Notes: generated by a model not told the origin, from the sequence alone. A stretch of DNA of 64,000 nucleotides from Flavobacteriaceae bacterium (GCA_024644725.1 JAHEHE010000003.1:2049-66048), one strand, 5' to 3'. Positions 46,523 to 54,977 are shown, counted from the first letter of the stretch. A program made the numbers and translations.

Positions 46523-46786
46523 ATGTGTCTGTCGATTCCCGGAAAACTCATAGAAGTCACATCAGAGCTCGATGAAACGTTTCGACTTGGTCGGGTGTCT
46601 TTTGACGGCATTGTAAAAGAAGTCAGCCTGACCCTGGTCCCGGAGGCCAAGGTCGGTGACTATGTAATGGTCCACGTCGGAGCGGCGATCAGCCTGGTCG
46701 ACGAGGAAGAAGCCGTGAAGACTTTCGATCTGCTGAAACAACTCGGCGAACTCCACGATCTGGACGATACCGGAGAGACCGAGTAA
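46523..46786 (+). CDS. hypC: Hydrogenase chaperone HypC
   Basis: MCLSIPG and VGDYVMVHVG. Confidence 0.96.
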   Translation: MCLSIPGKLIEVTSELDETFRLGRVSFDGIVKEVSLTLVPEAKVGDYVMVHVGAAISLVDEEEAVKTFDLLKQLGELHDLDDTGETE

Positions 46787-46797
46787 TGCTAGTGCGA

Positions 46798-47889
46798 CTA
46801 GCCCTTCCCTTTTTTCGTTTCCGCGACTGCAGGAGCCGTTTCGCCCTCGAATGATACCCAGGACAAATACAAATTGTAGGCAATGGCCAATACCACAGGC
46901 CCTATGAACAACCCCAAAATCCCCTGTAACATCATGCCTCCCAGGGCACCTATTAAAATGACCAGCATCGGGGTTTCAAGACCTTTGCCCAACAAAATGG
47001 GCTTCAGGAAACTATCCGACATCGAGACAATAATGGCATATATGGAAAATATAATGGCCGGGGTTGTCTCAGCATATGAGAAAACGATAGCAATTGCCGG
47101 GATCATTGCGATTAGAGGAGGCAACTGAATGATGGCGAATATAAGGACCAACACGGCAAATACACTAGCTGCAGGCAATTGGATGACAACGAATCCTATG
47201 TACGCAAGTACCGCCTGAATAATGGCTACAAGCAGTATGCCTTTTACTACGCTCCGAATGGTACTGGTGCACATATCCATAAACTCTTCTCCTTTTCCAG
47301 GTCGGAGCCTGTTGGCAAATTGAACCCCGGCCTTGTAACCTGAGTCGGCACTTGACATGAAGACTCCCGCGATGATCAAGGCGAAAAGACCGATGGCTAC
47401 GGAGCCGAGCAAACCCGTAAAGCTTCCAAAAAACCAACTGAGGGAGCTCTCGATCTCATCCTTGTATGAAGAAATGAATCTCTCAAGATCCGTAGAGGCC
47501 TGGCTCCAAGCTGTGTAAAGCCTATCTCCAATAACCGGCCAATCCGCAACATCTTCCTTCGGGGGCGGAATCTTAAGGCTTCCTTCATCCAACTTGGCAT
47601 AAAATTCCTTTCCGGAATCAATCAGGGAAGAAGTCAGATTAACCGTTGGGGTTATGATCAGCCCTAAAAGAACGAGTATGAACAGAGAGGTGACGAGTCC
47701 TTTCTTCTTCCCTTTGGTCAACCCCAGGATTCTCAAATAGATAGGATACAGCGAAACCGCTACAATGATTGACCATACGATCAATGTGACAAAAGGCCTC
47801 ACGATCAAAAAGCTCCATGCCAGGAGCAGAGTTAGTAGCACAATATTGATGTAGGTATTGATTGGATTGTGCGTGTTTGGAGTTTTCAT
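46798..47889 (-). CDS. AI-2E family transporter
   Basis: About 8 TM segments; DSFLKPILLG and GLFIGPVVLA. Confidence 0.9.
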   Translation of the reverse strand: MKTPNTHNPINTYINIVLLTLLLAWSFLIVRPFVTLIVWSIIVAVSLYPIYLRILGLTKGKKKGLVTSLFILVLLGLIITPTVNLTSSLIDSGKEFYAKLDEGSLKIPPPKEDVADWPVIGDRLYTAWSQASTDLERFISSYKDEIESSLSWFFGSFTGLLGSVAIGLFALIIAGVFMSSADSGYKAGVQFANRLRPGKGEEFMDMCTSTIRSVVKGILLVAIIQAVLAYIGFVVIQLPAASVFAVLVLIFAIIQLPPLIAMIPAIAIVFSYAETTPAIIFSIYAIIVSMSDSFLKPILLGKGLETPMLVILIGALGGMMLQGILGLFIGPVVLAIAYNLYLSWVSFEGETAPAVAETKKGKG

Positions 47890-47905
47890 ATTGGTTATAT
47901 TTAAA

Positions 47906-49297
47906 TTAGTTCAATTCTGTTTCATTTTCAGGGTCAACGACCCATCCTCCTCCCAGGGCCTGGTACAGCGCAATAATCGACGAGACCTGATTCTTGAAGG
48001 CTTCAGAGGCATTGAGTTCCGAGGTAAACTGGGAATTCTGCAAATTCAATACCTCCAGATAGCTCGTAAGACCTCCATCATATCTGACCCAGGCCAGCTG
48101 AGAGGCTTTTATAGCCAATTCCATTTGCTCATTTCTCAATTCGTATTCGTTCTTGTAGGTTTCAACGGCGATCATTGCATCTTCAACTTCCTGAAGTGCG
48201 TTGAGGTAGGCAGCTTCATAGTTCAATAGCAATTGTTGTGTTCTTTGTTCTTCGATCTCCACATTGCGTTGCAGTTTGCCGGCATTGAAAAGAGGGCCGA
48301 GCAACTGGGCCCCTAAATCAGCAAAGAGAAATGACGGGTCGATAAACTGCGCTCCCATATCAAGTGAGAGCGTGAGAGAGGGATATTTTAAAGCCTCGGC
48401 GACACCGATTCTCAGGGTCTGTGCATGCAAATTGCGCTCAGCCTGAAGGATGTCAGGTCGTCGGTCGAGCAATTCTGAAGGAAGCCCTACCGGTATCTCT
48501 GGCAAGCTGATCTGATCGTAAAGTGCAAGCCCTCTCGGGATGGGCCGTGGTGGGGTACCGGTCAATATGCTGATCGCGTTCTCGATCTGCCTGCGGGCTC
48601 GATCAAATGTCTCAATGGCCGTCTTGGCCTGGCTCACCTGGATCTTAGCCTGGGAAAGGTCAACTTCACTGATGAAACCGGCATTATATCGGGCCTGCAT
48701 GACCTCAAGGTTATCCTGAAAATTCTCAGCAGTCTTTTCAGCTATTATCCGTCGATTATCCGCGTCTCTCAGGGCTACATAGGCATCTGCCACAGCAGAC
48801 ACAATAACAATATTCAGAGACTTGAATGCCTCTTCGGATGCCAGGTAATTCTGGAGTGCAATTTTGTTCTGGGTCTTGATTCGCTGCCAAAGGTCAACCG
48901 TATAGGACACATTGAGCCCGGCCCCCACCTGATTATTCGAGCCGGAGACCTCGCTATTGACCAAGCTGGAGCCATAGGCATTGTAACCAATCAAGGGATA
49001 GTAGTCGGCCCGAGCCACATCAATTTGCAATACGGCCTCCTGCATGCGTGAGATCGCAATCTGAATATCCTGGTTGTTTGTCAGGGCACTGTCTATGAGA
49101 TCTACAAGAATCGAGTCTTGGAAAAGTTCCCACCAGGGTATGTTTGAAATAGCACTGTCTTTCGGAAAATCCTGAGTGAAAGATTCGGGGGTCGGCATCT
49201 GCTTTCGCTCATAATCTTCACCCACTTTGCAACTTTGAATAGACATCAGAAAAGCAAAAGTCAATACCAGGGACCCTATGAAAATACGAACCTTCAT
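47906..49297 (-). CDS. Outer membrane factor lipoprotein (NodT/OprM family)
   Basis: Lipobox IQSC, WWELFQD, PSELLDRRPDI and LYQALGGGW. Confidence 0.93.
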   Translation of the reverse strand: MKVRIFIGSLVLTFAFLMSIQSCKVGEDYERKQMPTPESFTQDFPKDSAISNIPWWELFQDSILVDLIDSALTNNQDIQIAISRMQEAVLQIDVARADYYPLIGYNAYGSSLVNSEVSGSNNQVGAGLNVSYTVDLWQRIKTQNKIALQNYLASEEAFKSLNIVIVSAVADAYVALRDADNRRIIAEKTAENFQDNLEVMQARYNAGFISEVDLSQAKIQVSQAKTAIETFDRARRQIENAISILTGTPPRPIPRGLALYDQISLPEIPVGLPSELLDRRPDILQAERNLHAQTLRIGVAEALKYPSLTLSLDMGAQFIDPSFLFADLGAQLLGPLFNAGKLQRNVEIEEQRTQQLLLNYEAAYLNALQEVEDAMIAVETYKNEYELRNEQMELAIKASQLAWVRYDGGLTSYLEVLNLQNSQFTSELNASEAFKNQVSSIIALYQALGGGWVVDPENETELN

Positions 49298-50337
49298 TTT
49301 ATCGATTTTGATTTGCTTTTAGAGATACGATCCAATAATCCGAAAGTAGCAACCACATAAACAACTGCCATCGCGATCTGAATGATCCGATCCCAAACTT
49401 TGCTCCCAGCTTCGTCATCTGATGCTGTAACGGAACCGAGTATAAGAAGGAATGTGGAAAAGGCACTGCCAAATATCCCTCCGTACTTGCTATCGGAAAA
49501 CAACTTTCGTGCAAAGACAAAACCAATGAGTAGCACAAGTAGCATCATGAAGATAAAGCTGGGGGCCATTACCAGAAGCTGGTAGGCAAGTATGCCGAAG
49601 AGTCCTCCCAGTGTATTGGCTACTATCATGACAAGACCCACTTTTGGGCTGGCCAGAGCAGGACTTACAGTTAGGATAGCAACAAAAGTCAAAATCAATA
49701 CGGAAGACGACCATTGAAAGAGATAATAGAGAATGATCACGGGTGCCAGTATGCACATGATCTTCACGGCATAGACATAACGTTGTTGACTTGTCTGTTT
49801 GGGAGCCTCTGCCTTTTCTTTGAGAAATTTCTCATCCGCTTGGCTCAGAGGAAAAAGCATGAAAATCATCTGGGTGAGCGCAATGGCCATAAAGGCATTG
49901 AACACCAAGATAATTGCAATGTAAGCTCCAATCGCAGTGGAATCAATCGAAAGAAATGGGATCAGAACAATGCTTATCAAAGCAAAGAGCTTCACCATCA
50001 TCGGCAACCTGTCCGTGTAGTACAGCCATAATAGAGTCAGTAATAACAACGGAATATATACCAGCGCATATTGTTGAAATGCACTTGCGAAAAGGACAGC
50101 CAAAAGCGTCAGAATGGAAAGAATCAGAAGAAAACCTATGCCCTGCTTAAAAGTCAACGGTTTGGCCCCCGGTGCCAAATAACCCAGTCCCAAAACGGCA
50201 GTCAAGTAGGCAAGGTCATAGTTGAGCAAGGAGGAAACAGCCACAATAAATGCACTGCCCAAAACGTATCGCAGAACAGGAATGGAATCCTTCCAGTCTA
50301 TTTTAAAACTCGATATGTTTAAGACCTTATCGGACAT
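49294..50337 (-). CDS. DUF2955-like (FUSC-related) inner membrane protein
   Basis: About 10 TM segments in two halves; lies between HlyD and OMF genes with overlap and a 1-nt gap. Confidence 0.7.
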   Translation of the reverse strand: MSDKVLNISSFKIDWKDSIPVLRYVLGSAFIVAVSSLLNYDLAYLTAVLGLGYLAPGAKPLTFKQGIGFLLILSILTLLAVLFASAFQQYALVYIPLLLLTLLWLYYTDRLPMMVKLFALISIVLIPFLSIDSTAIGAYIAIILVFNAFMAIALTQMIFMLFPLSQADEKFLKEKAEAPKQTSQQRYVYAVKIMCILAPVIILYYLFQWSSSVLILTFVAILTVSPALASPKVGLVMIVANTLGGLFGILAYQLLVMAPSFIFMMLLVLLIGFVFARKLFSDSKYGGIFGSAFSTFLLILGSVTASDDEAGSKVWDRIIQIAMAVVYVVATFGLLDRISKSKSKSIK

Positions 50338-50338
50338 A

Positions 50339-51520
50339 CTATCTGACGAAAGATAAATAGGACATCAGTCGAATCTTGAATGCCGCTATTGAATTTAAAA
50401 TGAAATTGTTGCCTGTGTACACTACTACATCTACCTGCCCTCCCAATCGATAGAGGTCCAGGATGTCTGCTTCATTGCTCGAGATGATCACCGGGAATCG
50501 CTGCGGATCCTGGAGCCATCCCTTTTTCTGGGAAATGGTAGGCAGACCACCCTTATTGGTCTCGTTCGTCGAGACTCCGAAGCCCATGCTTCTCACCTTC
50601 CCTTTGAAAACCCGACCCGGTGCGATGTCAAGTATAAACTCGACCTCATCGCCAATGCTCATCTGTGACAGGTTGTTCTCCTTGAGGTTCGCCTGTATCC
50701 AAACGTCACTGGAAGAAATCAAAGTAGTCAAAGGCTGTCCGGCTGAGGCATAATAACCGAGGTCGATCTCAAAACTCTCTATGAAGCCGTTTGTCGGGGC
50801 CACAATTGTAGAGAACTCAAGGTCCAGCTGAGCCTGTTCCAGGGTTTGAACCGCCGTTCTGATCTTAGGGTTGTCTGGCCCGTCGATTCCCAGATTTTGT
50901 TGAGACCTTTCCAGGCCTGCCTCTGCAGACGCTACCTGTTCTACAGCCTGCAAATAAGCCGTTTCGGCCTGGTCCTTGTCTGCCGCGGAAAGCGCTCCCT
51001 CGTTTTCTTTCATGACCTGCTGCACACGGTTCCAATTCCTTTCGGCACGATCCAGCTGGGCCCGGGCCACCCCCAGACGGCCCGCCGATGATTTCACAGA
51101 AGCCGAGCTCGCAGCAATGGATTGCACCGCATTGTCTATACCTGCTTCTGCTTTGGATACCGCAATTTCAAACGGGCGCCGATCAAGTTGAAAAAGTGTG
51201 TCTCCGGCCCTGACCTTTGTATGTAGTTGAATTCGCACATCCGTAATAAAGCCCGAAACCCGGGGACTAACCGGGGTGATCAGACCCTGAATTCTACCCT
51301 GGTCGGTGTAAGGCGTATGACGATCTGCGCTAACATACCAAATGAAAAACAGAACTGAAATCAACAAGACGATGTAAGTCACCTTCTTGATCGATCCCCC
51401 TTTTTCAGTCTTCTTATCCAGGGAATTGCCCTGTGCCTCCTGATTTTGAGGTGCTTCCTGGTTCTTAGGCGCTTCCTGATTTTGCTGGTCTTCCAAGGTT
51501 GTATCTTTATTCTTTTCCAT
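50339..51520 (-). CDS. HlyD family periplasmic adaptor
   Basis: Single TM, DRHTPYTD, PRVSG, LFQLD, VAPTNG and WLQDPQRFPV. Confidence 0.92.
   Translation of the reverse strand: MEKNKDTTLEDQQNQEAPKNQEAPQNQEAQGNSLDKKTEKGGSIKKVTYIVLLISVLFFIWYVSADRHTPYTDQGRIQGLITPVSPRVSGFITDVRIQLHTKVRAGDTLFQLDRRPFEIAVSKAEAGIDNAVQSIAASSASVKSSAGRLGVARAQLDRAERNWNRVQQVMKENEGALSAADKDQAETAYLQAVEQVASAEAGLERSQQNLGIDGPDNPKIRTAVQTLEQAQLDLEFSTIVAPTNGFIESFEIDLGYYASAGQPLTTLISSSDVWIQANLKENNLSQMSIGDEVEFILDIAPGRVFKGKVRSMGFGVSTNETNKGGLPTISQKKGWLQDPQRFPVIISSNEADILDLYRLGGQVDVVVYTGNNFILNSIAAFKIRLMSYLSFVR
51431..51484 (-). repeat. Imperfect 18-bp repeat x3 encoding (Q/K)NQEA(P/Q) in the HlyD cytoplasmic tail
   Basis: QNQEAP-KNQEAP-QNQEAQ. 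Confidence 0.85.
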
Positions 51521-51542
51521 ATCTATCCGCAAAGATTTTCAA

Positions 51543-51992
51543 TCAATTACTCTTCTCTGGCCCAACGTCTTTTCTCAAAATTTCCTGATACACAAAAAAC
51601 ATAAAGGCCGTGGACCAGCCGATCAACATGATTCCGTTGATGGCTTCCAATCCAGCCAGAATGCGATTGGTTGAGTCAATAGTAATCTCACCGTACCCTA
51701 AAGTGGTAAAAGTCACCAAAGAAAAATAGACGGCTTTCTCAAAGCTTTGAAACTCCGTTATACCTGGCAACAACAAGTAAAGAAAGGCCCAAAGGCTGGC
51801 TTGAATCAGGTGAAGTATTATCAGAAAAAACGATGTACCTATTAGAATGCGTACCGTTCGTTTTTTGAAAGTCTCCCGGGAGAGGCGTTTCTGAACAGCT
51901 ATAAATTTTTGCAGCCAGTAATTGGTGCCTTGAGCCTGGATGACAACTGTGAGACCTATAATGAACAGGCCAAGCAGTACGTTGATTAGCAT
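51543..51992 (-). CDS. Small potassium channel family protein (pore domain only)
   Basis: AVYFSLVTFTTLGYGE filter flanked by TM helices; no RCK domain. Confidence 0.85.
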   Translation of the reverse strand: MLINVLLGLFIIGLTVVIQAQGTNYWLQKFIAVQKRLSRETFKKRTVRILIGTSFFLIILHLIQASLWAFLYLLLPGITEFQSFEKAVYFSLVTFTTLGYGEITIDSTNRILAGLEAINGIMLIGWSTAFMFFVYQEILRKDVGPEKSN

Positions 51993-52139
51993 TAGGAATT
52001 GATTAGTTAACGTATAAATTTAGATGTTTTGACCTTAAATTCCTAAAATGTAAGTCAAATTAGACAAATCCTCAGATCGGCGATACAAGAATTAAATCCT
52101 TACCTTCGCAATACATCGAATACTAAAAAAATCAAACTC

Positions 52140-53138
52140 ATGTCTATCAAAAATCTTCGAGCTGAGGTCATGCTCACATTGGAGCGAAATGTCAGCCAAT
52201 TCCTGAATGATTATCTCATTCCCCCGGAAAAAATCTGGCAACCCTCCGACTTCTTGCCTAATCCTCAGTCTGAAAACTTTATGGACGAGGTTGAGGAAAT
52301 TCGGGAAGTAGCCAAGGATCTTGGAAATGACTTTTGGGTTACCCTGGTCGGTGACATGGTTACAGAGGAAGCGCTTCCTACGTATGAATCGTGGTTGATG
52401 GATGTGGTAGGTGTAAACCAGCATGGAGAAGAAGGAGACAATGGCTGGGCCAAATGGGTCCGGATGTGGACAGCTGAAGAAAATCGTCACGGAGATGTGC
52501 TCAACAAGTATTTGTACCTGTCAGGAAGGGTCAATATGAGAGAGGTCGAAATCAGTACGCAACACCTGATTGCCGATGGGTTCGATATTGGAACGTCACG
52601 CGATCCTTATAAGAATTTCGTTTACACCAGTTTCCAGGAGTTGGCAACCTATGTCTCTCACAACAATGTCGCTAAAATTGCCCGGAAAGCAGGCTTGAAG
52701 AACCTGTCGAAAATGTGCAAGATCATAGCGGGAGATGAGATGCGACATCACAAAGCCTATACAGAATTCGTCAGACAAATCTTCGAGGTGGACCCAAGCG
52801 AGATGATGTTAGCCTATTTTGACATGATGAAGTTGAAGATTACGATGCCCGCCATGCATCTGAGGGAATCGTTTGAGGCCCAGGGCGGACTTTTTGAAAA
52901 ATTTTCTGAAGTGGCTCAGCGCATTGGCGTATATACCAGTTTTGACTATGTCGACATCTTGAGAAAATTGAATGAAGCCTGGAAGATCGACACCATGTCC
53001 GGGTTGAGTGCCGAAGCTGAAAAGGCTAGAGCCTACTTGATGAAATTACCCGAAAGGATGGAAAGGATTGCAGAGCGCATCGTGATTCCAGACACCGATT
53101 ATGAATTTAAATGGATGAACCCGCTTGTGGTGCGGTGA
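52140..53138 (+). CDS. Acyl-ACP desaturase (soluble di-iron)
   Basis: WQPSDFLP, TEEALPTY, AEENRH, FQE and DEMRH. Confidence 0.93.
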   Translation: MSIKNLRAEVMLTLERNVSQFLNDYLIPPEKIWQPSDFLPNPQSENFMDEVEEIREVAKDLGNDFWVTLVGDMVTEEALPTYESWLMDVVGVNQHGEEGDNGWAKWVRMWTAEENRHGDVLNKYLYLSGRVNMREVEISTQHLIADGFDIGTSRDPYKNFVYTSFQELATYVSHNNVAKIARKAGLKNLSKMCKIIAGDEMRHHKAYTEFVRQIFEVDPSEMMLAYFDMMKLKITMPAMHLRESFEAQGGLFEKFSEVAQRIGVYTSFDYVDILRKLNEAWKIDTMSGLSAEAEKARAYLMKLPERMERIAERIVIPDTDYEFKWMNPLVVR

Positions 53139-53165
53139 TTCCCAATTCCTGCATCGAGAAAGCCT

Positions 53166-54977
53166 ATGAGATCACACTTTTTTTCGCTGGCCCTTCTGTT
53201 TTCGACGATGGCCCTTTTTTCGCAAAAGAGCATCAATTACCAAATCAGTTTTGAAAAGGCCGTTCAACATGAAGCTGACATTGAGATCGTCTACCGGGGT
53301 CTCGAACCCGGCGAACTTCGACTTCGAATGAGCCGGAGCTCACCCGGGCGTTATGCCGTTCATGAATTTGCCAAAAATGTCTACGCATTTCAAGCTTTCA
53401 ATGAAAGCAATGAGTCCTTAAAAGTCAAGAGGCCCAACCCTCATGAATGGGTCGTTTCGGGTCATGACGGCACAGTGAAGGTAAATTATACCCTTTTTGC
53501 GAATCACGGGGATGGCACCTACGCCCAAATTGACGAGAGTCACGCTCACCTGAATATTCCGGCAACTTTTCTTTTCGCTCCTGATCATGCCATTGAGCCG
53601 ATAGAAATTGAAATTCGCACCCGCGAGGACCTGAACTGGAAAATAGCCACACAGCTCAAGTCACTCGGAGAAAATCAGTTTTATGCCCCTGATCTCCACT
53701 ATTTCATGGACAGCCCGATCGAAGTCAGCGATCACAAAATCAAAAGCTTTGAAGTAGACGGTCCTGAGGGAACGGCGACGATCAACTTTGTTCTCCACCA
53801 GGAAAACGGCTATGAAGGCTTTGATGAGTATGCAGGCATGGCAGAGAAGATCGTAAAGGAACAGATGCGCGTCTTTGGAGAGTTGCCGAAATTTGATTTT
53901 GGCGCCTACACTTTCCTCGCGTGCTATGCCCCGAACGTCGATGGAGATGGCATGGAACACAGAAACTCCACGGTTCTCACCAGCGTGAGGTCCTTGTCTG
54001 AAGGAGGGTTGAAGAGAAATATAGGTACGGTCTCCCATGAATTCTTCCATGCCTGGAACGTAGAGCGAATTCGACCTGCCTCACTCGAGCCTTTCGACTT
54101 TGAAGATTCAAATATCTCGGGAGAGCTCTGGTTTGCTGAAGGCTTCACGAGCTATTACACCAATTTAACCCTGTGCAGGGCCGGCATCATTACTCCGGAG
54201 GAATACGCCAAGCGACTGGCACCTGTGCTTAGCTATGTTGTGAATTCTCCAGGCAGGCAATATTTTGGACCCGTGGGAATGAGTTACCAGGCTCCCTTTG
54301 TGGATGCCGCCACCTCTGTGGATGAAGTGAACCGGGAAAATACCTTTATCTCCTATTATTCGTATGGCAACATCTTGGGCCTTGGCCTGGATCTTTTGTT
54401 ACGAGAGTTGGATGAAGACAAGAATCTCGACGATTTTATGAAATTGGTCTGGGTTCGACACGGCAAAAAGGAGATCCCTTACACCTTGAGAGACCTCAAA
54501 GCGATTCTCGTAGAATATAGTTCCCAAGAATTCGCCGAGTCCTATTTCTCAAACTATATTCACGGCAGCAAACTTCCCGACTTCAATTCCCACCTCGCTG
54601 CATTTGGAATCGAAATCTCAGTGGCTAACCCACAGCGTCCGCGGCTCGGGGCCCGAATTTCCCAGGAAGATCAGAATTGGCGTGTAGCCTCGAACCCAAT
54701 GGAGGGATCGGGACTTTTCGAAGCCGGTTTCAGCAAAGGAGATTTGATCCTTTCGATCAATGGGCAATCAACAGCAAAAGATCTGACGCTTGAGGCTTTT
54801 GCAGAAAAATTCAAACCGGGTGAGACCCTGGATGTGGAATATTCCAGATTTGGCAAGACGGGTAAAAAACAGGTGACACTTGGTTCGGATCAAAGCTTTA
54901 AAACCGAGTTGATGACTGAACTTGATGCGAAGACCAAAGCCCGCAGGGATGCTTGGCTCATCCACAATAAAAAATAG
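53166..54977 (+). CDS. M61 glycyl aminopeptidase family with PDZ domain
   Basis: Signal peptide, GMEH, HEFFHAWNVERIRP, LWFAEGFTSY and a C-terminal PDZ. Confidence 0.92.
   Translation: MRSHFFSLALLFSTMALFSQKSINYQISFEKAVQHEADIEIVYRGLEPGELRLRMSRSSPGRYAVHEFAKNVYAFQAFNESNESLKVKRPNPHEWVVSGHDGTVKVNYTLFANHGDGTYAQIDESHAHLNIPATFLFAPDHAIEPIEIEIRTREDLNWKIATQLKSLGENQFYAPDLHYFMDSPIEVSDHKIKSFEVDGPEGTATINFVLHQENGYEGFDEYAGMAEKIVKEQMRVFGELPKFDFGAYTFLACYAPNVDGDGMEHRNSTVLTSVRSLSEGGLKRNIGTVSHEFFHAWNVERIRPASLEPFDFEDSNISGELWFAEGFTSYYTNLTLCRAGIITPEEYAKRLAPVLSYVVNSPGRQYFGPVGMSYQAPFVDAATSVDEVNRENTFISYYSYGNILGLGLDLLLRELDEDKNLDDFMKLVWVRHGKKEIPYTLRDLKAILVEYSSQEFAESYFSNYIHGSKLPDFNSHLAAFGIEISVANPQRPRLGARISQEDQNWRVASNPMEGSGLFEAGFSKGDLILSINGQSTAKDLTLEAFAEKFKPGETLDVEYSRFGKTGKKQVTLGSDQSFKTELMTELDAKTKARRDAWLIHNKK

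Follow-up and report, generated by a model that had tools for sequence, protein, structure and literature searches.

A recurring, predicted FUSC-type exporter operon with its own potassium channel and an AI-2E partner

Why would an operon for an export pump begin with a gene for a potassium channel? The question is raised by five genes on the minus strand of a 64,000-nt stretch of DNA from a Flavobacteriaceae bacterium (GCA_024644725.1 JAHEHE010000003.1:2049-66048; hereafter the window, with positions counted from its first letter). Between positions 46798 and 51992, a listing of open reading frames (ORFs) and a reading of the DNA give, in 5' to 3' order on that strand, a small K+ channel, a HlyD-type periplasmic adaptor, a membrane protein of the DUF2955 family, an outer-membrane factor (OMF) and an AI-2E family transporter. 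The genes are tightly packed, with intergenic distances of 22 nt, 1 nt, a 4-nt overlap and 16 nt, and the stop codon of the AI-2E gene lies 11 nt from that of the convergent hypC gene (46523-46786). An initial annotation of the locus had described the same five genes with the same spacing, and both descriptions hold. The adaptor has an alternative TTG start at 51532, 12 nt upstream of the ATG, with which the first gap would be 10 nt. To our knowledge, the cellular role of most bacterial K+ channels is largely unknown and the energising of FUSC-type pumps is unresolved, so that a channel joined to such a pump bears on two problems at once. The module is real and it recurs widely. It amounts to a FUSC-type tripartite pump in variant form, supplied with a K+ channel of its own and an AI-2E partner, and we found it described in no paper in the open-access literature or on bioRxiv; the same sources returned nothing on the function of DUF2955 or on a linkage between K+ channels, efflux pumps and AI-2E proteins.

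The case begins with co-inheritance. Our sample comprised 201 Flavobacteriaceae genomes, that of the window and those of 200 other genera, which are related to one another. The DUF2955 pump is patchy in this family, being present in nine of the 200 other genera and thus in ten of the 201 genomes in all. Where the pump occurs, its company is constant: the order channel-adaptor-DUF2955-OMF is kept in all 11 related loci (nine flavobacterial and two from further relatives), at DUF2955 identities down to 27%. An AI-2E gene follows the OMF gene in seven of these loci (L002, L004, L005, L008 and L010-L012). Two of the remaining four contigs end before the AI-2E position is reached, and two loci, in genomes G023 and G167, have no AI-2E gene there. 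Both of these genomes carry an AI-2E gene elsewhere, not beside the pump, as does G130, in which the pump contig ends just after the OMF gene.

Genome-wide searches make the association explicit. An orthologue of the channel (E ≤ 1e-29) is found in 10 of 10 pump carriers versus 3 of 191 non-carriers, and an orthologue of the AI-2E protein (E ≤ 1e-60) in 10 of 10 carriers versus 5 of 191 non-carriers. AI-2E homologues at E ≤ 1e-10 were found in none of the five pump-free genomes examined first. Fisher tests give p ~1e-14 for the channel and p ~1e-13 for AI-2E, values that are overstated because the genomes are related. In a broader sample of 400 Bacteroidota genomes, a search with the alignment of the DUF2955 family found nothing beyond the window genome (G000); the PF11168 model was uninformative over the same 400 genomes, as it missed even G000. 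The evidence supports the view that the five genes form a true unit, conserved together and so far uncharacterised. The initial annotation had treated them as one system, and it is vindicated on this point both by the core order in the related loci and by recurrence in other phyla.

Outside the Flavobacteriaceae, where the contexts amount to a few dozen loci, the same partners appear in shuffled order. A metagenome scan with the alignment of a distant DUF2955 subfamily (28-30% identity to the window protein; contigs of 42-72% GC) yielded 18 loci, and in these the adaptor always precedes DUF2955. An AI-2E gene, with or without an OMF gene, lies upstream of the adaptor in six of them, and one locus (L019) reads Ion_trans_2 channel (223 aa)-AI-2E-HlyD-DUF2955. 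A tblastn search of PLSDB placed DUF2955 genes on large replicons of Agrobacterium, Ensifer, Rhizobium, Sinorhizobium, Vibrio, Photobacterium, Paraburkholderia and Cupriavidus. Ensifer adhaerens (L040) has a 151-aa channel of the window type (33% identity, filter FTSLGYGD, 47.3 bits against Ion_trans_2) together with AI-2E, divergent from HlyD-DUF2955. In Vibrio sp. THAF190c (L039) the order is HlyD-DUF2955-AI-2E-channel, the channel being of a 221-aa type, and in Paraburkholderia phymatum (L042) it is AI-2E-OMF-HlyD-DUF2955. Vibrio alfacsensis (L038, pYa108) has AI-2E-HlyD-DUF2955 followed by genes for an alpha/beta hydrolase and an MscS-family channel; Agrobacterium (L036, pAspH13-3a) has MscS and hydrolase genes divergent from a 94-aa ORF-HlyD-DUF2955; and Photobacterium (L037) and one Rhizobium (L041) have the HlyD-DUF2955 pair only. 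Wherever a locus extends far enough to show it, the gene immediately before DUF2955 is that of the adaptor. Because this pair alone is common to all contexts, including Photobacterium and Rhizobium, adaptor and DUF2955 are the invariant core, and AI-2E, OMF and K+ channel are its recurrent partners across phyla. The channel and the AI-2E transporter accompany the pump in Bacteroidota and in Alpha-, Beta- and Gammaproteobacteria, though gene order varies. A neighbourhood of partners that survives the shuffling of gene order across phyla is a classic signature of functional linkage.

K+ channels are attached to a second kind of pump as well. Two of the five AI-2E carriers that lack the DUF2955 pump (G170 and G142) have an arrangement linked to an RND transporter. 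In G170 one strand reads OMF-membrane fusion protein (MFP)-RND (AcrB type)-K+ channel (229 aa)-135-aa ORF-226-aa lipoprotein-AI-2E, and in G142 an RND gene and a channel lie close to AI-2E. This second channel type, of 220-230 aa, has four N-terminal helices and a pore with the filter TIGYG[DE], which is kept in 19 of 20 members. Strong homologues are present in 44 of the 201 sampled genomes. In 19 of the 20 loci fetched (L050-L069), an OMF-MFP-RND (AcrB type) operon ends with this channel gene, most often no more than 20 nt from the RND gene; the channel type is also present in L044 and L045. Both kinds of operon are present in four genomes (G007, G023, G180 and G198), where each has a separate paralogue of the channel. 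With both RND and DUF2955 operons so equipped, K+ channel genes are therefore attached to tripartite efflux operons that have two unrelated inner-membrane transporters.

Is the first gene of the window operon truly that of a K+ channel? The 149-aa product scores 44.5 bits against Pfam Ion_trans_2 (PF07885), above the gathering score of 22.5, and its leading matches by Foldseek and by PDB sequence and profile searches are all K+ channels. Its AlphaFold2 model, with a predicted local distance difference test (pLDDT) score of 90, consists of a long N-terminal helix, an outer helix (46-74), a pore helix (84-97) and an inner helix (107-143), and the filter, TTLGYGE, follows the pore helix between two transmembrane helices. 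The filter FT[TS]LGYG[DE] is kept in 15 of 15 orthologues, three solo copies among them, and L98, G99, Y100 and G101 are invariant in all 15. The protein has no RCK, cyclic-nucleotide or voltage-sensor domain. The original description of the channel as 'pore-only' is thus right in that there is no gating domain, and needs amending for one extra transmembrane helix at the N terminus. Our search found no longer, fused homologues of the channel, which is weak evidence, and an apparent fusion of channel and adaptor in L009 was ruled out, as the DNA shows a TGA stop between the two genes. The model shows the fold of a K+ channel, the selectivity filter is intact, and the protein is predicted to conduct. 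Its pore architecture and T-x-G-Y-G-[DE] filter are those of the minimal prokaryotic K+ channels (KcsA, KirBac, Lmo2059 and the MlotiK pore). It differs from them in the extra N-terminal helix, in having no cytoplasmic gating domain and in its tie to an efflux operon.

The third gene, for the presumed translocator, is harder to place. Its 347-aa product gives no match to PF11168 (DUF2955; gathering score 25.5 bits) at E ≤ 0.01 and none to FUSC (PF04632), and its 18.2 bits against FUSC_2 (E 0.0029) fall below the cut-off of 25.6. Homologues that are 72-74% identical carry PF11168, and more distant members of the family (P0127, P0216, P0245 and P0125) score 55.5, 36, 32.8 and 26.8 bits against DUF2955, with the match on the N-terminal half. 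The C-terminal halves of P0125 and P0127 lie just below the FUSC and FUSC_2 cut-offs, and proteobacterial homologues are annotated as DUF2955. Because close homologues carry the domain and remote relatives score above its cut-off, 'DUF2955-like' seems a fair label for the window protein. The family is small, with 411 representatives among 1.84 billion clusters at 50% identity. One of its members, P0127 (816 aa, on an ENA contig of 5 kb), reads as a single protein that fuses DUF2955 to an OMF domain; such a fusion is implausible, and the probable cause is either a sequencing error or reading through the 4-nt overlap that the two genes usually have.

Structure prediction hints at the clan of FUSC and ALMT proteins. 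The AlphaFold2 model of the 347-aa protein, made with 107 family members, is of high confidence (pLDDT 93, predicted template modelling score 0.89) and contains 12 helices arranged as two six-helix blocks, with no soluble domain. R23 and R317 are invariant in the 107 members. The N-terminal and C-terminal halves align in register with one another (hhalign E 3.4e-4). Alignment to E. coli pump proteins is weak: the C-terminal half matches the second membrane block in MdtO (E 0.0087), and the N-terminal half the first one in AaeB (E 0.057). When residues 4-165, one six-helix block of the model, were compared with known structures by VIA-align, AtALMT1 ranked first (Z 9.5 over 157 residues, where values below ~13 can arise by chance in helical proteins), AtALMT9 third (Z 8.2) and GmALMT12/QUAC1 tenth (Z 7.3). 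Three ALMT members, from the Pfam clan common to FUSC and DUF2955, would make a coherent though modest signal. A search of PDB sequences with the family profile found no solved structure. The model suggests a single-chain pseudo-dimer of the FUSC/ALMT membrane domain; a membrane domain so compact, in one chain, would be a convenient structural target in a poorly understood class of transporters.

The protein is not an orthologue of AaeB, MdtO or FusC. FUSC/ArAE transporters are proteins of ~650-700 aa (AaeB has 655 and MdtO 683) with two six-helix membrane blocks, each followed by a cytoplasmic domain, whereas the window protein has half their length, 12 helices and no cytoplasmic domains, and is marginally alignable with them. 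Its gene stands directly after that of the adaptor, as in FUSC/ArAE exporters, and does so in all related loci. The inner-membrane component was initially said to be neither RND, MFS nor ABC, and that is correct; nor is it one of the known FUSC aromatic-acid exporters, an identity that would have told against the initial annotation.

The other three proteins are more readily assigned. The adaptor scores 70.3 bits against HlyD_D23 (cut-off 30) and 44.8 bits against HlyD_3 (cut-off 22.2). Its best NCBIfam model is MdtN (NF007785; E 5.6e-50), with 170 bits against an equivalog cut-off of 376, and it reaches 119 bits against EmrA/EmrK (NF011715; E 1.8e-49), where the equivalog cut-off is 563. By these scores it is a relative, not an orthologue, of MdtN and EmrA. 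At its N terminus (window 51420-51500, minus strand), a low-complexity cytoplasmic tail of QNQEAP-like repeats precedes the membrane anchor; in orthologues such a tail varies or is missing. The OMF scores 138 bits against OEP and 296.5 bits against TIGR01845 (NodT), above the cut-off of 210, and has a signal peptide ending in ...SIQSC, with an N-terminal lipoprotein cysteine and a lipobox that is not canonical.

The AI-2E protein matches PF01594 over residues 17-344 (115.5 bits; gathering score 34.3), and its best NCBIfam model is YdiK (NF008216; 181 bits, below the equivalog cut-off of 305). It is thus a full-length PF01594 protein like E. coli YdiK, TqsA and the UPF0118 antiporter of Halobacillus. 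Within this family, TqsA is an exporter of AI-2 (PMC9475539) and the Halobacillus protein is a Na+(Li+)/H+ antiporter (PMC7221264). The window protein differs from all three in being genomically coupled to HlyD-DUF2955 (and, in some genomes, to RND pumps); in the open-access literature and on bioRxiv we found such coupling described for no characterised AI-2E member. Whenever the AI-2E gene stands outside a DUF2955 operon, it has beside it a gene for a lipoprotein of 226-229 aa with a stretch rich in Tyr, Gly and Ser and no Pfam or NCBIfam match, which in L043, L044, L046 and L047 directly adjoins the YdiK-like AI-2E gene.

How might the five proteins work together? Our best reading, which we favour tentatively and with slightly less than even confidence, is an envelope-spanning exporter that moves an anionic compound electrogenically, while the K+ channel supplies the counter-current and the AI-2E protein acts as a partner. 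The DUF2955 protein would be the single-chain equivalent of the dimeric FUSC/ALMT transmembrane domain. Driven by the membrane potential or the proton-motive force, it would expel from the cytoplasm a metabolite or toxin that is anionic, probably a carboxylate, and pass it to the duct formed by adaptor and OMF. Such transport would be electrogenic and depolarising. The K+ channel would then carry a current that offsets the charge moved, whether by letting K+ out or by keeping the membrane close to the K+ equilibrium potential, and export could continue; we propose a K+ channel as the simplest device for such a current or clamp. The AI-2E protein would either rebalance cations and protons (cf. 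PMC7221264) or deliver substrate to the periplasm (cf. PMC9475539).

Comparison with known systems bears on both halves of this proposal. The layout of the window operon, a small gene followed by those of an adaptor, a FUSC-clan protein and an OMF, is that of E. coli ytcA-mdtNOP and aaeXAB (with the OMF in mdtNOP), and also that of the fusaric-acid pumps of Burkholderia and Stenotrophomonas, FusA(Bucl8)-FusCDE and FuaABC, which have a NodT-type OMF and a small extra membrane gene (PMC7682875). The likely substrates of MdtNOP, AaeXAB, the Fus pumps and the window system alike are carboxylic acids. In the window operon, however, the slot of the small gene is occupied by a K+ channel instead of AaeX, YtcA or FusD, and the set includes an AI-2E gene. 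The ALMT channels (AtALMT1, 7VOJ; AtALMT9, 8HIW; GmALMT12/QUAC1, 7W6K) and the mycobacterial FUSC-domain protein Rv2571c, which belong to the same Pfam clan, have a six-helix domain, and it is to that of the ALMT channels that the N-terminal half of the window protein gives its modest structural match. They too have conserved arginines in the membrane domain, and their substrates are organic anions. By contrast, ALMT proteins and Rv2571c are homodimers of six transmembrane helices plus a cytoplasmic helical domain and act alone, whereas the window protein unites both six-helix blocks in one chain, does without the cytoplasmic domain and is linked to an adaptor and OMF duct. For Rv2571c, a role as an ALMT-like anion channel through which alpha-ketoglutarate leaves the cell has been put forward (bioRxiv 10.64898/2026.03.10.710584), a proposal that supports channel-like, potential-driven movement of anions in bacterial members of the clan.

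Export would be electrogenic whether the translocator is an RND proton antiporter or an ALMT/FUSC-like protein, and it is therefore as electrical support that we propose the channel. A more general form of this idea is that the mini K+ channels are dedicated electrical partners of tripartite pumps, be they of the DUF2955/FUSC or the RND kind, each pump having its own channel that supplies a K+ counter-current (a 'potassium battery' or voltage clamp) and is possibly in contact with it. This generalisation is possible and, at present, rather doubtful. If true, it would give the mini K+ channels of Gram-negative bacteria a general physiological role, and add a new component to the energetics of efflux pumps. 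The observations that prompt it are that a filter-intact K+ channel is co-inherited with an export pump across phyla, and that a second type ends RND operons in about a fifth of the sampled Flavobacteriaceae genera. Both the role of the K+ channel and the energetics of FUSC-type pumps become testable in cultured carriers, among them Ensifer adhaerens, Vibrio sp. THAF190c, Lutimonas saemankumensis and Mangrovimonas.

Several points weigh against an exporter with an electrical partner. The partner role is purely inferential. An open K+ channel would conduct inward at a potential more negative than the K+ equilibrium potential, so that the current may run in either direction. For a protein made up wholly of helices, a Z of 9.5 is a modest match to ALMT, and it is limited to the N-terminal half; Foldseek comparison of the 347-aa model with the PDB returned only spurious MFS rows, with template modelling scores of ~0.2. 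At least two activities, export of AI-2 and Na+/H+ antiport, have been reported for AI-2E proteins. Furthermore, channel and pump can be parted. Three channels in the Flavobacteriaceae are solo copies without a pump: one (L015) adjoins an ABC/MacB-like set, another (L017) adjoins an IS66 element, and the third (L016:7872-8554) is followed by frameshifted remnants of an adaptor gene, with no DUF2955 or OMF gene, and looks like a decayed copy of the operon. Conversely, no K+ channel lies near HlyD-DUF2955 in L036, L037, L038, L041 or L042, and because several proteobacterial HlyD-DUF2955 pairs thus stand without one, the K+ channel is not obligatory for the pump.

The alternative that survives best is export in two steps. 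AI-2E would move a small metabolite from cytoplasm to periplasm, the DUF2955-adaptor-OMF assembly (or the RND assembly elsewhere) would carry it onward across the outer membrane, and the channel would balance charge or regulate. Outside the Flavobacteriaceae, no other partner is kept beside HlyD-DUF2955 as widely as AI-2E; in G170 its gene comes after the OMF-MFP-RND-channel operon on the same strand; and the family member TqsA is an exporter (PMC9475539). We nevertheless consider two-step export unlikely. HlyD-DUF2955 pairs occur with no AI-2E gene nearby (L036, L037 and L041), most RND operons with a channel have no AI-2E gene, and the adaptor and DUF2955 form an invariant overlapping or abutting pair, as in AaeAB and MdtNO, which marks DUF2955 as the membrane partner of the adaptor.

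A second alternative, which we judge quite improbable, is an osmotic or ionic release valve through which K+ leaves with an organic counter-anion, glutamate or another carboxylate. Here DUF2955 would be the anion channel and the K+ channel its cation partner, much as ALMT12/QUAC1 works together with K+ channels in plant guard cells. Such a valve would suit the resemblance of the translocator to ALMT channels and the habitats of the carriers, which are marine or soil bacteria, and there are MscS-family genes beside HlyD-DUF2955 in Agrobacterium and Vibrio alfacsensis and a BCCT osmoprotectant transporter nearby in L029. These MscS and BCCT neighbours are few, however, and small hydrophilic ions need no adaptor or OMF duct at the outer membrane.

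Could the system simply be an ordinary pump for aromatic carboxylates or drugs, of the AaeAB, MdtNOP or FusC type, with the K+ channel and AI-2E genes as incidental neighbours? The co-occurrence of these genes with the pump (10/10 versus 3/191 and 5/191), and the return of the same partners in several phyla despite shuffled gene order, are hard to square with incidental neighbours, and the membrane protein, only half as long as AaeB or MdtO, has none of their cytoplasmic domains. We therefore disfavour this view as very unlikely, even though the gene order is that of ytcA-mdtNOP and aaeXAB, the best models for the adaptor are MdtN and EmrA (with a weaker match to AaeA) and a relative of the DUF2955 protein bears the NCBI label 'FUSC family protein'. 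Just as improbable is a non-conducting structural subunit in the slot of AaeX, YtcA, FusD or AcrZ that stabilises or regulates the inner-membrane component, for which the channel-like protein is in the right position (that of aaeX and ytcA, upstream of the adaptor) and has a separate paralogue for each pump type in genomes with both, suggesting specific contact, but which hardly explains, without ion conduction, why the filter is kept in 15/15 and 19/20 members of the two channel types and in the solo copies too.

What, then, of the hydrogenase genes next door? The initial annotation had proposed an ion/pH-homeostasis or organic-acid export system, possibly tied to low-O2 metabolism, and had looked to co-occurrence with hydrogenase genes. 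Organic-anion export with ion balancing is still the best reading; the tie to low O2 and to the Hox and Hyp genes falls away. The hypB/hypC genes flank the operon in the Lutimonas-level loci L002-L004 and in none of the other loci fetched. The other flank is a divergent pair of genes (52140-54977, plus strand) for a soluble acyl-ACP desaturase (FA_desaturase_2, E 1.9e-134) and an M61 glycyl aminopeptidase with a PDZ domain, and its synteny with the operon is likewise confined to L002-L004. Because the hyp, desaturase and M61 flanks are all restricted to these loci, the hydrogenase adjacency is incidental, a matter of local Lutimonas synteny; the hydrogenase maturation genes are unrelated to the export system, and a link to them was rejected.

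Table 1. Genes of the predicted exporter operon in the window, with candidate regulatory features at its borders
Feature	Position	Strand	Description
Mini K+ channel	51543..51992	-	149 aa; TM0, outer helix, pore helix, filter TTLGYGE, inner helix; Ion_trans_2
Periplasmic adaptor (membrane fusion protein), EmrA/MdtN type	50339..51520	-	393 aa from ATG at 51520; HlyD_D23, HlyD_3
DUF2955-family inner-membrane protein, presumed translocator	49294..50337	-	347 aa; 12 helices, without soluble domain; remote relative of the FUSC/ALMT clan
Outer-membrane factor, NodT-type lipoprotein	47906..49297	-	463 aa; start overlaps DUF2955 stop by 4 nt
AI-2E family transporter, YdiK-like	46798..47889	-	363 aa; PF01594
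Intergenic region common to operon and divergent acyl-ACP desaturase gene	51993..52139	.	147 nt; candidate promoter region
Short palindrome GCTAGTGCGACTAGC	46788..46802	.	Between convergent hypC and AI-2E stops; from terminator-like scan

The borders of the operon hold candidate control sites (Table 1). The intergenic region shared with the desaturase gene is the sole gap big enough for an operon promoter, and is a candidate by its position only. The Bacteroidota -7 box TANNTTTG has no exact copy on the minus strand in this region or within the operon, and a sigma-70 promoter scan of the region gave scores not above those of shuffled sequence. At the other end, the palindrome is a weak candidate for a two-way terminator, as such sites are no commoner in the region than expected from shuffling.

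A few further neighbours deserve mention. In both Agrobacterium (L036) and Vibrio alfacsensis (L038), an alpha- and a gammaproteobacterium, a MarC-family gene accompanies those for the MscS-family channel and the alpha/beta hydrolase beside HlyD-DUF2955. Three metagenome contigs have a gene for a 359-370-aa lipoprotein of no assigned family upstream of AI-2E-OMF-HlyD-DUF2955 (L027:742-1854, L029:596-1675 and L030:597-1676), and in the same three loci short ORFs of 92-134 aa overlap the DUF2955 stop. On a metagenome contig of 60% GC, a gene for a pentameric ligand-gated channel, with Neur_chan ligand-binding and membrane domains, directly adjoins AI-2E-HlyD-DUF2955 (L023:2183-3520, minus strand). 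Finally, an alkyl-sulfatase gene follows DUF2955 on another metagenome contig (L024:1613-2962), and in E. coli (L014) the alkylsulfatase gene yjcS adjoins ytcA-mdtNOP; these neighbours may be a coincidence or a hint at sulfated or alkyl-acid substrates.

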